From: an uncultured Solirubrobacterales bacterium
Lineage (GTDB): Bacteria > Actinomycetota > Thermoleophilia > Solirubrobacterales > Solirubrobacteraceae
Reading direction: 5' to 3'
Assembly (NCBI GenBank): GCA_963824755.1
Contig: CAWGQT010000022.1
Span: 22,930-86,929, forward strand
DNA: 64,000 nt
In this document: piece after piece, positions 51,730-56,481 of the stretch
Position numbering within the stretch: the stretch's first letter is position 1
Layout of the letters: each line of letters starts with the position of its first letter
Position numbers and translations under genes: made by a program
The notes under the pieces: model-generated
What the model saw: the letters and a program-made list of their open reading frames with translations, nothing else
The model's database searches: none
Told to the model about the DNA's origin: nothing

Positions 51730-51738
51730 AGGCCGGTG

Positions 51739-52890
51739 ATGGAAGCTCTCTCGTTGCCGTCGTCGGGCGAGTCGCGGCTGGCGCGAATCAAGGCGTCGAT
51801 GTCGCCGCAGGAGTGGCGGCGGCTCGGCGGAATGGCCGCCGTGATCGCCGGCCTGCACATCCTGGGGTTCGGGCTCCTGATCCTGGTGGTAGCGCCGGAG
51901 CACCTCAAGCTCGGTGCGGCCGGCACGTTCGCGATTGGAACCGGAATTACGGCGTACACACTTGGTATGCGCCACGCGTTCGACGCCGACCACATCTCCG
52001 CGATCGACAACACCACGCGAAAGATGATGGGCGAGGGCAAGCGCCCTTTGAGCGTCGGCTTCTTCTTCTCGCTCGGGCACTCGACGATCGTGTTCGGCCT
52101 GACGTTCCTGCTCGCGATCGGCATCCGCGCGCTGAGCGGCCCCGTTCAGAACAGCCAGTCGACGTTGCACAAGGCGACGAACGTGATCGGGACCACCGTG
52201 TCGGGAGCGTTTCTGTACATCATCGCGATTCTCAACATCCTGATCCTGGTGAGCATCGTCCGGATCTTCTTCGGGATGCGGCGGGGGGCGTACGACGAGC
52301 ACGAGCTCGAGCAACAGCTCAACTCTCGCGGACTGATGAGCCGCTTCTTCGGCAAGCGGCTGAACGCGATCAAGGACCCGTGGCATATGTATCCCATCGG
52401 CATCCTGTTCGGCCTCGGATTCGACACCGCCACCGAGATCGGGCTGCTCGTCCTGGCCGCCGGCGCGGGCGCGGCGGGCCTGCCGTTCTACGCGATCCTC
52501 TGCCTGCCGGTCCTGTTCGCCGCCGGCATGTCATTGCTCGACACGATCGACGGGTCGTTTATGAACTTTGCGTACGGCTGGGCGTTCTCCAAGCCTGTTC
52601 GCAAGGTTTATTACAACATCACGATCACAGGGTTGTCGGTGGTAGTTGCCCTGTTTATCGGAACCTGCGAGCTGTTGGGGCTGCTGGTCCAAAAACTCGG
52701 ACTGCACGGCCCGGTCGCCGGCTGGTTCCAGCACTTCAACATCAACACCGCCGGATTCATCATCGTCGCGATGTTTGTTGGTACCTGGGCTCTCGCACTT
52801 GCGATCTGGCGCTTCGCCAAGATCGAAGAGAAATGGAGCGTCGGCATGCAGCTCGCGGCCACGCGCTCCGGCCGCAAGCAGGACACTTGA
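51739..52890 (+). CDS. HoxN/HupN/NixA (NiCoT) nickel/cobalt permease
   Basis: GMRHAFDADHISAID (HX4DH signature), FFSLGHSTIV, GLGFDTATEI, DTIDG..M..AY.WAF..P.RK.YYN.TIT. Confidence 0.95.
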   Translation: MEALSLPSSGESRLARIKASMSPQEWRRLGGMAAVIAGLHILGFGLLILVVAPEHLKLGAAGTFAIGTGITAYTLGMRHAFDADHISAIDNTTRKMMGEGKRPLSVGFFFSLGHSTIVFGLTFLLAIGIRALSGPVQNSQSTLHKATNVIGTTVSGAFLYIIAILNILILVSIVRIFFGMRRGAYDEHELEQQLNSRGLMSRFFGKRLNAIKDPWHMYPIGILFGLGFDTATEIGLLVLAAGAGAAGLPFYAILCLPVLFAAGMSLLDTIDGSFMNFAYGWAFSKPVRKVYYNITITGLSVVVALFIGTCELLGLLVQKLGLHGPVAGWFQHFNINTAGFIIVAMFVGTWALALAIWRFAKIEEKWSVGMQLAATRSGRKQDT

Positions 52891-52965: not shown

Positions 52966-53205
52966 ATGCTTGGACTTGACAATCCAATTCACATTCTCTT
53001 CCTGCTGGTGATTCTGCTTCTGGTATTCGGCGCCAAGCGGTTGCCGGAGTTGGGACGTTCGCTCGGTTCGGGTCTGCGAGGGTTCAAGGACACGATCAAC
53101 GGCGATCCCGCCCGCCCGGAGCAGCTGACCGCAAACGCCGCGCTGGCGAGCGAGCCGACCTCCGAGTCCCGCGAGAACAGCACCACCGCGAGCCACGCCG
53201 CGTAG
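52966..53205 (+). CDS. tatA: Twin-arginine translocase subunit TatA
   Basis: TM helix, then FGAKRLPELGRSLG.GLRGFK amphipathic helix; RBS ggag. Confidence 0.93.
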   Translation: MLGLDNPIHILFLLVILLLVFGAKRLPELGRSLGSGLRGFKDTINGDPARPEQLTANAALASEPTSESRENSTTASHAA

Positions 53206-53236: not shown

Positions 53237-54223
53237 ATGCGGGCTGCTGCCGTGCTCAGGCCGATCGGCCAGGCCGATCACCTGACCGTCGTCGACCACC
53301 TCGACGAGCTCCGCGCGCGGCTGATCGTCTCGCTACTCGCAGTCGCGGTCGCGTTCGGGCTGTGCTTCTGGCAGAACCACCGGCTGCTGCGTTTGATCAA
53401 CGCCCCGCTCGCGCACCAGACACAACAACAGGTGCGCGATGGGCAAGGCCCGCTGGGAGCCACTTACACTGTCAGCCGCAGCGCGAGGGACGTGGCCGTC
53501 CAGCTGCAGACGGTCGTCGGTCTGCTGGCTGCCGAGCGGGGCCAGCCGGCGGTGTCCAGGACGCTCCGTCAGGTCGACGCGAATCTTGGCCGCGACGTCG
53601 CCCGGCTCTCGGCTCCACCGCCCGGCGACCGTCCGGTGACGCTCGGGATCGGCGAACCGTTCACGACGACCGTCACCGTGTCACTGATCTTCGCGCTGAT
53701 TCTCGCGCTCCCCGTTCTGTTGCTTCAGGCTTACGCATTCTTGATGCCGGCGGCCGACCCGGCACTGCGCCGGCGGATGCGACCGGTACTGCTCGCGATC
53801 CCGATCCTGATGACCGCCGGCGTGACCTTCGGCTACTTCGTCGTCCTGCCCGCGGCTCTGCACTTCTTCCAGAACTTCAACAGCACGCAGTTCAACGTGC
53901 TCGTACAGGCGAGCCAGTACTACAAGTTCGCTGCGACCATCCTGCTCGCCATGGCCCTTCTGTTCCAGATTCCCGTCGTCATACTGGGGATCACGCGAGC
54001 GGGCTTGGTAACCCCTGCACAACTGCGCCGGAATCGGCGCTATGCGCTCGGGGCGTGCGCGTTGCTCGCCGCGGTTCTGCCTGGCGATGTGATCACGATG
54101 CTGCTCGAGATTGCGCCGCTGTACCTGCTGTTCGAAGGCAGTGTCTTGGTAGCGGCCATCGCCGCACGCCGCCGTGGATCTCGCGTCGGTGACACTTCGC
54201 CGACTTCCGTCCCGGCTGGGTGA
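53237..54223 (+). CDS. tatC: Twin-arginine translocase subunit TatC (atypical)
   Basis: HLDELRARL, EPF, P.LL.Q..AF..P, G..FGYFVVLP.AL.FF, FQIP, RRNRRYA, PGD...M. Confidence 0.92.
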   Translation: MRAAAVLRPIGQADHLTVVDHLDELRARLIVSLLAVAVAFGLCFWQNHRLLRLINAPLAHQTQQQVRDGQGPLGATYTVSRSARDVAVQLQTVVGLLAAERGQPAVSRTLRQVDANLGRDVARLSAPPPGDRPVTLGIGEPFTTTVTVSLIFALILALPVLLLQAYAFLMPAADPALRRRMRPVLLAIPILMTAGVTFGYFVVLPAALHFFQNFNSTQFNVLVQASQYYKFAATILLAMALLFQIPVVILGITRAGLVTPAQLRRNRRYALGACALLAAVLPGDVITMLLEIAPLYLLFEGSVLVAAIAARRRGSRVGDTSPTSVPAG

Positions 54224-54247
54224 TCCGTTTTCGCGCGGCATCCGTAT
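54221..54247 (+). promoter_or_regulatory. ECF-type promoter motif, copy 3
   Basis: TGATCC-gttttcgcgcggcatc-CGTAT starting at the tatC stop codon. Confidence 0.65.
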
Positions 54248-54300
54248 CGGATGTCAACAAGCCAACCACCACCCAGCTCAGGGGGTTGAAAGGAGCAGTT

Positions 54301-54630
54301 ATGACCGACGAGCGGAACAGCGGCGGCGGAGTGACGCGGCTGTCGTTCATCAAGGCGGGCGCAGGCGTAGCTGCGGGAGTCGCCGCGGCCAGCGTCCCTG
54401 CCGCAGCCGTGCTTTCCGGGGAGAAGAAGGGCGTTGTTACCTCGCCTTCGTCTTCCGCGCCGAAAGAACCGGTAATGGCGTACGTGCGCGATGCGCAGAA
54501 GGGCGAGGTGACGGTGTTGTCCGGCACCGCCGAGACGACGTATCGCGACCACGGGCTCGTCCGGCGTCTGATGGACGCCGCACCCGAGCCTTCAAGCCTG
54601 AACGGAGGAATCGATGTCATCGCACCGTGA
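54301..54630 (+). CDS. Small protein with Tat-like signal peptide (T-R-L-S-F-I-K)
   Basis: RBS gaaaggag; VTRLSFIK, then Ala-rich h-region and PAAA; overlaps the DUF4331 start by 17 bp. Confidence 0.75.
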   Translation: MTDERNSGGGVTRLSFIKAGAGVAAGVAAASVPAAAVLSGEKKGVVTSPSSSAPKEPVMAYVRDAQKGEVTVLSGTAETTYRDHGLVRRLMDAAPEPSSLNGGIDVIAP

Positions 54631-56014
54631 AGCACCGGAGATCAGCAAGGATCCGGTGGCGGACCACACGGACGTTTATGCGTTCGTCAGTCCCGACCGA
54701 CCGGACACGGTCACGCTGATCAGTAACTTCGTTCCGCTTCAGGATCCCCCTGGCGGACCGAACTTCTTCGAGTTCGGCGACGACGTCCTGTACTCGATCA
54801 ACATCGACAACGACGGCGACGGGGTCCCGGAGATCTCCTACGTCTTCAGGTTCCAGACCCTCCTGCGTGACACAGAGACGTTCCTGTACAACACGGGTCC
54901 GATCACCTCGCTCGGCAGCAAGAACTGGAACAAGCGTCAGTTCTATTCGGTCACGCGTGTAACGGGTGGCGACACGACAAAGTTCGGGAACGGCGGCCGC
55001 GGGCTGAGGGCAAAGGTGCTCGGCACCAATCTGCAGTGCCCGCCGTGCAACATTGGGCCACGCTCGACGCCGAACTACCCGGCACTCGGTGCTGCCGCCG
55101 TTCACACCCTATCGGGCGGCGTCAAGGTGTTCGCCGGTCAGCGGCTGGAGGGGTTCTACGTCGACCTCGGAGCGATCTTCGATCTCGGCGACCTGCGCCC
55201 GTTCCAGCACCTGCACCTGATCCCCAGCGCCGACGCGGTGGGGGTTGACGCGACCAAGACGCTCAATGTCCACACGATCGCGATTCAGGTACCGATCTCA
55301 GACCTGACCGCAAGCAGGTCGGTGCCAAAGAATCCGATGAGCAAGAACGCGGTGATCGGCGTGTGGTCCTCGTCCAGCCGCCGCAAGGTGCGGATGCTGA
55401 ACGGCAACGGCGTTCCGTCTGAGTCCGGGCCCTGGGTTCAGGTCTCACGACTCGGCAATCCGCTGTTCAACGAGGTGATCGTGCCGCTCGGCGACAAGGA
55501 TCGCTGGAACGCCCTGCCGCCGGCTGCTGACAAGCAGTTCGTCAAGTACGTGGAGAAGCCCGAGCTCGCCGGCCTGCTGCCGGTTCTGTACCCGGGCGTG
55601 TTCCCGAACTTGGCGAAGTTGAACAAGCCGCGCGCCGATCTGGTGGCGGTGCTGCTGACAGGCATTCCGTCCGGCATCGTTCCCGGGTTCCAGAACTACA
55701 CGGGCAAGACGCTGGCCGACCAGCTGCGGCTCAACCTCGCGATCCCGCCGACGAAGTCCAAGCCGAGCCTGTATGGCCTGCTCGGCGGCGACGCCGCCGG
55801 TTTCCCCAACGGGCGGCGGGTGTTCGACGACATCGTCAGCATCGAGCTGCGAGCGATTGCCGGCGTCACCTACGCACTGGTCGACAAGTCCTTCAAGCCC
55901 GATGGAGCGGCGTCGGAGCTGACGGAGGGACTGACACCCGGTGCGGGCCGCTACCAGAGCACGTTCCCGTATCTCGGCACGCCGAGGAGCGGGTTCGACA
56001 CGCCGTCCAGTTAG
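54614..56014 (+). CDS. DUF4331 domain protein (no signal peptide, N-terminus MSSHREAP)
   Basis: SSHREAP.I..DP.AD.TD.YAF, F.F.DDV.Y.I.IDN.GDG, FAGQR...F.VDLG.IFD, QVSRLGNPLFNEV, GFPNGRR..DD. Confidence 0.88.
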   Translation: MSSHREAPEISKDPVADHTDVYAFVSPDRPDTVTLISNFVPLQDPPGGPNFFEFGDDVLYSINIDNDGDGVPEISYVFRFQTLLRDTETFLYNTGPITSLGSKNWNKRQFYSVTRVTGGDTTKFGNGGRGLRAKVLGTNLQCPPCNIGPRSTPNYPALGAAAVHTLSGGVKVFAGQRLEGFYVDLGAIFDLGDLRPFQHLHLIPSADAVGVDATKTLNVHTIAIQVPISDLTASRSVPKNPMSKNAVIGVWSSSSRRKVRMLNGNGVPSESGPWVQVSRLGNPLFNEVIVPLGDKDRWNALPPAADKQFVKYVEKPELAGLLPVLYPGVFPNLAKLNKPRADLVAVLLTGIPSGIVPGFQNYTGKTLADQLRLNLAIPPTKSKPSLYGLLGGDAAGFPNGRRVFDDIVSIELRAIAGVTYALVDKSFKPDGAASELTEGLTPGAGRYQSTFPYLGTPRSGFDTPSS

Positions 56015-56055: not shown

Positions 56056-56085
56056 TCTTCACACTCGATCCCGAAAGAGGACTTG

Positions 56086-56481
56086 ATGGGCCACCAGCAC
56101 TCCGACCACCTCCACGATCACGACCACCCGCACGCACACCCGGTCGAGAACTACTCGGCGCGAAAGCACCCGGAGTTCGTCGTGCTCGACATCGGCGAGG
56201 AGCTCGGCGCTCTGATCATCTACGCCGACCCTGAGATGCACGGCCGCGAGATCGAGATCAGCCCTGCCGGACGCGACGGTGACCGCAGCCACAAGGAGGT
56301 GCTCGAGCGAAGCGAAGGAGGCCACCCGGCGTTCACGGCGGTGTTCGACGCGCTACCTGCCGGCGCCTACACCCTATGGGTCGACGACAGACCCCGTGCC
56401 TGGAACGTGAACATCGACTGTGGCGCGATCGCCCAGCTCGACTGGAGGAGCGCACGGGCCACCTCCCCCTCCGCGGCCTGA
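56086..56481 (+). CDS. His-rich small protein, putative metal chaperone
   Basis: 8 His in the first 18 residues (MGHQHSDHLHDHDHPHAH), then VVLDIG.ELGALIIY..PE..GREIEISP and AVFDALPAG.YTLW. Confidence 0.75.
   Translation: MGHQHSDHLHDHDHPHAHPVENYSARKHPEFVVLDIGEELGALIIYADPEMHGREIEISPAGRDGDRSHKEVLERSEGGHPAFTAVFDALPAGAYTLWVDDRPRAWNVNIDCGAIAQLDWRSARATSPSAA

Follow-up and report, generated by a model that had tools for sequence, protein, structure and literature searches.

A TatC paralogue without the Glu103 partner of the second signal arginine, encoded beside an Arg-Leu Tat-like signal in Solirubrobacteraceae

We report here on a gene cluster in a 64,000-nucleotide stretch of DNA (hereafter the window) from an uncultured Solirubrobacterales bacterium of the family Solirubrobacteraceae (assembly GCA_963824755.1, contig CAWGQT010000022.1, positions 22,930 to 86,929 of the forward strand), whose source genome has a GC content of 68%. 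The cluster encodes a paralogue of the twin-arginine translocation (Tat) component TatC, termed TatC2, with leucine in place of the glutamate that binds the second arginine of the signal, and directly behind it a small protein, termed S, whose Tat-like signal carries leucine in place of that second arginine. In window coordinates, the genes and features are as follows (aa, amino acids):

51736..52890, + strand: NicO/NiCoT-type nickel-cobalt permease, first gene of the co-oriented cluster (Pfam PF03824, E = 4.6e-98)
52966..53205, + strand: tatA2, a TatA paralogue paired with tatC2 (Pfam PF02416, E = 2.3e-16)
53237..54223, + strand: tatC2, a paralogous TatC of 328 aa, belonging to clade B (Pfam PF00902, E = 1.3e-51)
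53297..53314, + strand: HLDELR motif with the equivalent of Escherichia coli Glu15 (E15) intact (sequence and alignment)
53738..53773, + strand: codons of the signal-binding loop, F-L-M-P-A-A-D-P-A-L-R-R, equivalent to E. coli F94-R105 (aligned without gaps to TatC of E. coli and Aquifex)
53765..53767, + strand: CTG, Leu where E. coli has E103, which pairs with the second signal arginine (DNA reading and alignment; role of E103 from PMC13323110)
54301..54630, + strand: small protein S, 109 aa, with a Tat-like signal and a conserved C-terminal domain of ~50 aa (no Pfam match)
54334..54354, + strand: T-R-L-S-F-I-K (ACG CGG CTG TCG TTC ATC AAG), a Tat consensus motif with Leu for the second Arg
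54614..56014, + strand: DUF4331 protein, starting MSSHREAP, without a signal peptide (Pfam PF14224, E = 4e-139)
56083..56481, + strand: His-rich small protein, last gene of the cluster (open reading frame)

NicO, TatA2, TatC2, S, the signal-less DUF4331 protein and the His-rich protein are encoded in one operon-like cluster. The S and DUF4331 genes overlap by 17 nt in the window, and the S open reading frame is preceded by an AAGGAG ribosome-binding site. In relatives, NicO is also linked to the S and DUF4331 genes, and the His-rich gene is kept behind DUF4331. A paralogous tatA-tatC pair that adjoins a cargo gene, with another Tat system elsewhere in the genome, is the layout of a dedicated TatAC-cargo operon, and this arrangement recurs in about 90 loci. 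The tatA2 gene lies directly 5' of tatC2 in nearly all paralogue loci checked (more than 1 kb off in L040 and L042). The source genome encodes two TatC proteins, of which only the window copy is without E103; the housekeeping TatC on contig C32, behind its own TatA, reads AFVIPALNPQERK and retains it.

TatC2 matches PF00902 with 175.9 bits (curated cut-off 25.1) and covers profile positions 1-208. A single-sequence AlphaFold2 (AF2) model was poor (pLDDT 53.7). The model used in its place was built from an alignment (pLDDT 68.7), and its top Foldseek matches were 9e01_A, 4hts and 4b4a (probability 1.0, TM to target 0.63-0.66). This confirms the TatC fold at moderate model confidence, and the model is adequate for fold assignment, not for the side-chain geometry of D100 and L103. 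The E. coli TatC reference was taken from NC_000913, with the numbering of E15, F94, P97, L99 and E103 verified. TatC2 aligns without gaps to E. coli TatC (MAFFT), and to Aquifex TatC 4B4A, FIEPALYSHEKR (phmmer). Read from the DNA, the window loop is AFLMPAADPALRR, compared with AFIAPALYKHERR in E. coli. Its codons run TTC 53738 (F94), TTG, ATG, CCG 53747 (P97), GCG, GCC 53753 (Ala at L99), GAC 53756 (Asp at Y100), CCG, GCA, CTG 53765 (Leu at E103), CGC and CGG. The gapless alignment thus places Leu at E103, Ala at L99 and Asp at Y100, and F94 and P97 are retained (AFLMPA). An earlier, sequence-only reading of this DNA had placed the same Leu and Ala on a gapless alignment to the E. coli segment, had noted an intact N-terminal HLxELR motif (HLDELR, with E15 kept) and had pointed to T-R-L-S-F-I-K at 54334-54354 of the next gene; these placements and codons are borne out here.

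A cryo-electron microscopy structure of E. coli TatBC with the substrate MdoD (2026) gives these positions their meaning: the first motif arginine binds E15 via water and stacks under F94, and the second salt-bridges E103 and packs on Y100 (PMC13323110). In that study, E103A serves as the binding-negative control (PMC13323110), and E103G and E103K cripple E. coli Tat transport (PMC3712464). A link between the two losses is mechanistically apt, since the residue lost from TatC2 is the partner of the arginine lost from the signal. The sequence-only reading had implicated both L99 and E103 in twin-arginine recognition. For E103 this agrees with the structure, but L99 makes no contact with the signal and only traps lipid (PMC13323110). 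Ala at position 99 is also not conserved, being Phe in L033, the nearest relative. Both TatC copies of Solirubrobacteraceae share an insertion of ~70 aa in the first periplasmic loop (window 53400-53650, about residues 57-135 of TatC2; housekeeping copy L001), predicted to be helical in the AF2 model; TatC is 328 aa long in this family, whereas the order's other families have TatCs of 256-266 aa.

The paralogue set comprised 14 same-genus genomes and 80 loci from species-representative genomes, which gave 91 unique sequences; these were aligned with E. coli TatC and 16 housekeeping copies from the family and order (110 TatCs aligned). E103 is absent from 80 of the 91 paralogues, mostly in favor of Gln, and present in all 16 housekeeping copies, a contrast that speaks against a chance substitution. 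E15 is invariant in all 110 sequences, and the paralogues keep P97 and F94 (Tyr at 94 in three copies). Their tree consists of two groups. Clade A (10 loci) has Glu103 in all but one member and is always followed by a short S with S-T-R-R-G-F-V-K and then by DUF4331. In clade B (81 loci), residue 103 is Q in 51, H in 10, L in 6, R in 6, M in 2, V in 2, E in 2, T in 1 and A in 1. The window TatC2 is nested in a clade B subclade with L033 and L091, and only these three loci have V-T-R-L-S-F-I-K and DUF4331 after TatC2. Most other clade B loci adjoin Ferritin_2 (PF13668) proteins of four subfamilies:

F1, ferritin-like: G-D-T-R-[L/M/I/F/S/G]-x-F-L-R-[K/R]
F2, ferritin-like lipoprotein: E-R-K-[K/R]-F-L-K
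F3, ferritin-like: S-T-R-R-K-F-V-A-G
F4, ferritin-like: T-R-R-S-L-L

Of 120 close relatives of F1, 119 have Leu or Met at the second-arginine site, within a conserved DTR[L/M]xFLRK; the homologue search for its ancestral state returned relatives of at least 70% identity only. A fifth ferritin-like subfamily (F5) has a single Arg in V-E-V-H-G-[M/L/I/V]-[T/N/S]-R-[A/S/Q]-[S/T]-F-I-L-[R/K]-G (L043-L045, L204-L227), and its gene usually stands in tandem with that of an E-R-K-K-F-L-K lipoprotein. Further TatCs without Glu103 (H, A, I, T, S, L or M) were seen at 38-46% identity to TatC2 among 150 representatives of a 50%-identity library, mostly 250-340 aa long (P0281, P0304, P0317, P0331, P0335, P0339, P0346, P0361, P0373, P0385 and P0389), and E103-less TatCs may therefore occur outside Solirubrobacteraceae as well, judging by these sequences.

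Two explanations concern the TatC2 site itself. In the first, the acidic partner has moved to position 100 (or 102), twin-arginine (RR) signals are still bound, and the R-L signals are an unrelated quirk of the lineage. An acid at 100 would explain RR cargo behind TatC2 copies without Glu. D or E occupies position 100 in 63 of 81 clade B members (73 of 81 when position 102 is included) compared with none of the 16 housekeeping copies, and the window copy has D100. Y100 contacts the second arginine in the E. coli structure (PMC13323110). Clade A forms a series, in which D100 goes with Q103 in L102 (the sole Q103 member), E100 with E103 in its sister L114, and H100 with E103 in the rest, the cargo remaining RR throughout. 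Against this, positions 100, 102 and 103 are all free of acid in eight clade B members, so that the shift is not universal, and two of these eight members (L090 and L094, VNPRHRR) are still followed by RR cargo. It also leaves the clustering of single-Arg cargo beside clade B unexplained, and the geometry that it calls for lies beyond the AF2 model (pLDDT 68.7). We consider a shifted acid unlikely. In the second, TatC2 is no independent receptor: its degenerate site would need the Glu103 housekeeping TatC as a partner in mixed oligomers in order to work, as in haloarchaeal TatCt. Every genome with TatC2 also has a Glu103 TatC, and TatCs without F94 and E103 have been read as inactive sites that need a partner TatC (PMC13673990). 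TatC2, unlike TatCt, keeps F94, E15 and P97, however; a conserved TatA2 of its own accompanies it, cargo genes share its operons, and its Gln103 is conserved rather than decayed. A purely subordinate role for TatC2 is improbable on these grounds.

We next consider the signal of S. It lacks two consecutive arginines and matches the consensus S/T-R-R-x-F-L-K at 6 of 7 positions. Its h-region, AGAGVAAGVAAASVPA, is rich in Ala and Gly and weakly hydrophobic (mean Kyte-Doolittle 1.46). The S family has at least 296 members. Among the best 120 S clusters (59-100% identity), 116 read [V/L/I]-[T/S]-R-L-S-F-[L/I/M]-K; one has R-R and three deviate otherwise. The codons of the motif vary synonymously (ACG/ACC/ACA/ACT, CGG/CGT/CGC/CGA, CTG/CTC), which indicates that the Leu is selected, with purifying selection acting on Arg-Leu. 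The C-terminal motif PV.AYVRDA..GEVTV.SG is kept across genera. In other genera of the family, a long form of S carries RR (S-R-R-A-F-L-Q and similar), and the short form is found both as RR and as R-L; the change from R to L thus arose at least twice. Two twin-arginine motifs in tandem precede the conserved C-terminal domain in some S proteins of genus g14 (L138, L139 and L148), for example, D-A-T-R-R-S-F-L-R ... A-Q-S-R-R-S-F-L-Q.

Directly after S, a signal-less DUF4331 starting M/V-SSHREAP is present in all 27 family loci with a readable start. This two-gene layout, found at every such locus, led us to reject the possibility that S and DUF4331 are one frameshifted or interrupted gene. The N-terminus M/V-S-S-H-R-E-A-P (window 54614-54640) is invariant across genera, which fits a functional free N-terminus, for example, a metal-binding Ser-Ser-His. 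Our literature search found no paper on DUF4331. Sec cannot export folded complexes. DUF4331 is signal-less in both the RR and the R-L lineages, which implies co-export of a folded complex with S. The pair has the gene arrangement of a Tat hitchhiker, in which a signal-bearing subunit is co-encoded with a signal-less partner, and S is probably the carrier that takes folded DUF4331 across the membrane.

These observations bear on the possibility that R-L N-termini are no longer Tat signals but Sec signals or membrane anchors, to which the state of TatC would be irrelevant. Known Tat substrates hardly ever deviate at the second arginine (PMC7317946), and R-L proteins exist in genomes without any non-Glu TatC. 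Yet the R-L motif of S matches the consensus at all positions but one and is orthologous to RR motifs, its h-region is of low hydrophobicity, and the folded co-export implied for DUF4331 in both lineages would be impossible for Sec. A loss of Tat character is therefore improbable in our judgment.

Three more single-Arg Tat-like signals were seen in the source genome (G000) in a tightened genome-wide scan, a looser first scan having been discarded, together with ~20 canonical RR signals:

contig C2, about 177471, - strand: LodA-like oxidase lipoprotein, L-R-T-R-A-E-F-L-R-A
contig C6, about 41681, - strand: flavin amine oxidase, L-T-R-G-S-F-I-G, in an open reading frame that looks frameshifted in its second half
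contig C18, about 175983, - strand: sulfatase, I-T-R-G-E-L-L-K

The sequence-only reading had gone on to propose that the loss of the acid in TatC matches the loss of the second arginine, so that TatC2 (Leu103) and the R-L signal form a co-evolved, mutually dependent pair and a private channel orthogonal to housekeeping Tat. Both losses are conserved and associated at the level of the locus, but related genomes argue against a mutual dependence. All 9 loci with cargo directly downstream of a Glu-TatC2 have RR there, with no R-x case, whereas cargo in that place behind a non-Glu TatC2 shows RR at 7 loci and R-x at 24 (naive Fisher p = 4e-5). Accordingly, R-x cargo adjoining a TatC2 always stands beside a non-Glu copy. 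Within the same S family, STRRGFVK is found behind the Glu-TatC2 of clade A and VTRLSFIK behind the Leu/Gln TatC2 subclade, that is, S switches from RR to R-L behind clade B rather than clade A. The salt bridge between the second arginine and E103 is real, which also speaks for such a pair. This locus-level association is confounded, however, since a single clade with a single cargo family makes up the Glu group.

The two kinds of case that the sequence-only reading had itself named as counting against it both occur. Canonical RR signals lie 100-212 nt behind a non-Glu TatC2 in 7 loci: S-T-R-R-G-F-V-K behind Q103 in L102; F3 behind H103 (VNPRHRR) in L090 and L094; and F4 behind T103 in L039, A103 in L041, H103 in L088 and Q103 in L115. 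Conversely, R-L cargo occurs with a sole Glu103 TatC. We searched 401 genomes of the family with S and determined the full TatC complement for 30 S carriers, with the search repeated using the TatC2 protein. A single TatC was found in G281 (95% complete, 4 contigs, V-T-R-L-S-F-L-Q), G316 (95% complete, 6 contigs, V-T-R-L-S-F-L-K) and G217 (98% complete, 7 contigs, I-T-R-L-G-F-M-K), and this TatC has Glu103 and shares only 41-43% identity with TatC2. In all three genomes the S gene stands together with those for DUF4331 and the His-rich protein, and in G281 and G316 with NicO too. Single-Arg ferritin-like proteins are likewise present in G217 and G005, with a single Glu103 TatC each (G-D-T-R-L-S-F-L-K-K, G-D-T-R-F-D-F-L-R-K, H-G-L-T-R-A-S-F-I-L-K-G and E-R-K-K-F-L). 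Judging by gene content, some genomes thus appear to export Arg-Leu cargo although a Glu103 TatC is the only TatC that they encode. G299, a closed chromosome, has its R-L S operon and its Q103 TatC2 2.1 Mb apart. In an unbiased sample of the family, a non-Glu TatC is present in 4 and absent from 4 genomes with an R-x S signal, and present in 5 and absent from 12 genomes with an RR S signal; this genome-level association is not significant.

No consistent pairing of residues was found either. A code linking Leu at 103 (and Ala at 99) with Leu at the second signal position was rejected, as T-R-L-S-F-I-K follows L103 in the window and in L033 and Q103 in L091, position 99 in these three loci is A, F and F, and other L103 TatC2s adjoin Ser or Met variants (L111 and L064). 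The association between the two losses is confined to the level of the locus, and the 7 RR loci and the three genomes with a single Glu103 TatC speak against the private channel that the sequence-only reading had suggested. That the two losses are an obligate pair is, on this evidence, highly improbable. A TatA paralogue stands divergently beside the S gene, with no TatC adjoining, in L130 (of G316) and L132 (of G192), G316 being without TatC2 genome-wide; cargo-linked TatA alone may matter.

The reading we favor, which we hold to be somewhat better than an even proposition, is that TatA2 and TatC2 form an auxiliary, cargo-linked translocase in a lineage that tolerates loss of the second signal arginine, and that the two losses are not an obligate pair. 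Their independence is supported by RR cargo behind non-Glu TatC2 together with R-L cargo in genomes with a single Glu103 TatC. The TatC2 clade, large and specific to Solirubrobacteraceae, keeps the pocket for the first arginine and the Phe (E15, H12, F94 and P97), with the glutamate for the second arginine replaced by Leu here and by Gln in most relatives, and the S signal would be of a true Tat type with a conserved Leu as its second residue. In the absence of a second Arg, the first would still contact E15 and F94, and the Phe pocket and the h-region would remain as well; suppressor work has concluded that the transport mechanism does not strictly require either the RR pair or the site that binds it (PMC7317946). 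Mean h-region Kyte-Doolittle values of R-L forms are 1.29-1.48, compared with 0.76-1.45 for RR forms, a small effect that seems to run in the direction of the laboratory suppressors. Such tolerance could have let the cargo families S and ferritin-like F1, F2 and F5 fix R-L, R-M, R-S or R-K, and could also have let the duplicated receptor for such cargo lose E103, with clade A, which would serve the RR-type S, keeping it. This would fit the neighbors of the two clades, those of clade B being Ferritin_2 proteins or S with single-Arg motifs and those of clade A (E103) being RR. As the losses are not an obligate pair, TatC2 would add dedicated or regulated export capacity for neighboring cargo instead of an orthogonal channel. 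In loci such as L034, L035, L037 and L046, tatA2-tatC2 is immediately preceded by genes for an ECF sigma factor and an anti-sigma factor, which suggests stress- or metal-regulated expression of the auxiliary translocase.

Several points weigh against this view. The paralogy, the substitutions, their conservation and their distribution are shown here, whereas Tat export of S, the hitchhiking of DUF4331 and the assignment of cargo to either TatC are inferred from genome sequence. In E. coli, E103A, E103G and E103K abolish or cripple binding and transport (PMC13323110, PMC3712464), and an E103-less receptor may thus need further compensation. The conserved Gln103 and the enrichment of D/E at position 100 suggest a re-built rather than a merely relaxed site. 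Non-Glu TatC2 could genuinely prefer single-Arg cargo, which would account for the locus-level association. Finally, G281, G316 and G217 are metagenome-assembled genomes, and a TatC2 could have been missed in them. A bolder proposal is that Tat targeting in Solirubrobacteraceae follows a natural code with a single arginine, T-R-[L/M]-x-F-L-K, in which the second Arg and Glu103 are dispensable and a hydrophobic residue in place of that Arg is positively selected; the E103-less TatC2, which has Gln, Leu or His at 103 and in many cases an acid at 100, would then be a naturally re-tuned receptor that prefers such signals and still accepts RR. We put this forward tentatively, as a real possibility that we would not yet bet on.

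Twin arginines and TatC E103 are treated as near-universal, E103 being called highly conserved in bacteria and archaea and its absence being read as an inactive site in a 2026 review (PMC13673990). The ~80 bacterial TatC paralogues without E103 described here keep the rest of the site, and conserved Arg-Leu, Arg-Met, Arg-Ser or Arg-Lys pairs characterize entire cargo families. We found no description of a bacterial E103-less TatC clade or of conserved Arg-Leu Tat motifs in the literature searched. These proteins provide a natural test set for how far Tat targeting rests on the second arginine, and Tat predictors based on RR will miss substrates in these soil Actinomycetota. If the single-arginine code were true, this would be the first natural bacterial Tat system to work without the salt bridge between the second arginine and E103, and a ready natural suppressor set for dissecting signal recognition.

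Second TatC loci were found in about 5% of surveyed species (PMC3827258). The closest parallel in layout is Bacillus subtilis, where TatAd-TatCd with phoD, and TatAy-TatCy, are cargo-adjacent TatAC pairs with a documented partial substrate preference between paralogues (PMC13673990). As with TatAdCd-phoD, a second TatA-TatC pair stands here beside its presumed cargo, with another Tat system in the same cell. By the descriptions, cargo signals of the B. subtilis pairs are treated as ordinary twin-arginine signals, whereas the Solirubrobacteraceae have a paralogue clade without E103 and much neighboring cargo without a second Arg. Haloarchaeal TatCt, a 14-transmembrane-segment fused TatC without F94 and E103 that is read as binding-inactive, is the only E103-less TatC discussed in the 2026 review (PMC13673990). 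It resembles TatC2 as a natural E103-less paralogue alongside a canonical TatC; TatC2, by contrast, is a bacterial TatC of normal length that keeps F94, E15 and P97 and has its own TatA and adjacent cargo.

To our knowledge, the known natural single-arginine exceptions replace the first Arg, conservatively with Lys. Examples are Salmonella TtrB and the Rieske protein, both K-R (Hinsley 2001, as cited in PMC7317946). In the cargo described here, entire protein families have Leu, Met, Ser, Gly or Lys in place of the second Arg instead. Among hitchhikers, the hydrogenase small and large subunits and PaoABC have a signal-bearing partner encoded beside a signal-less partner that is co-exported folded (PMC4273604); here the putative carrier S has ~80-110 aa and no Pfam family, and the proposed passenger is DUF4331. 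According to PMC7317946, laboratory suppressors (Huang & Palmer 2017; Ulfig 2017; TatB F13Y) allow transport without the RR pair or without F94/E103 if compensated. Those are engineered E. coli variants of reduced efficiency, whereas the R-L state is natural, conserved over about 100 species and has a hydrophobic Leu or Met at the second position. The TatC2/S system can thus be regarded as a natural counterpart of the laboratory twin-arginine suppressors.

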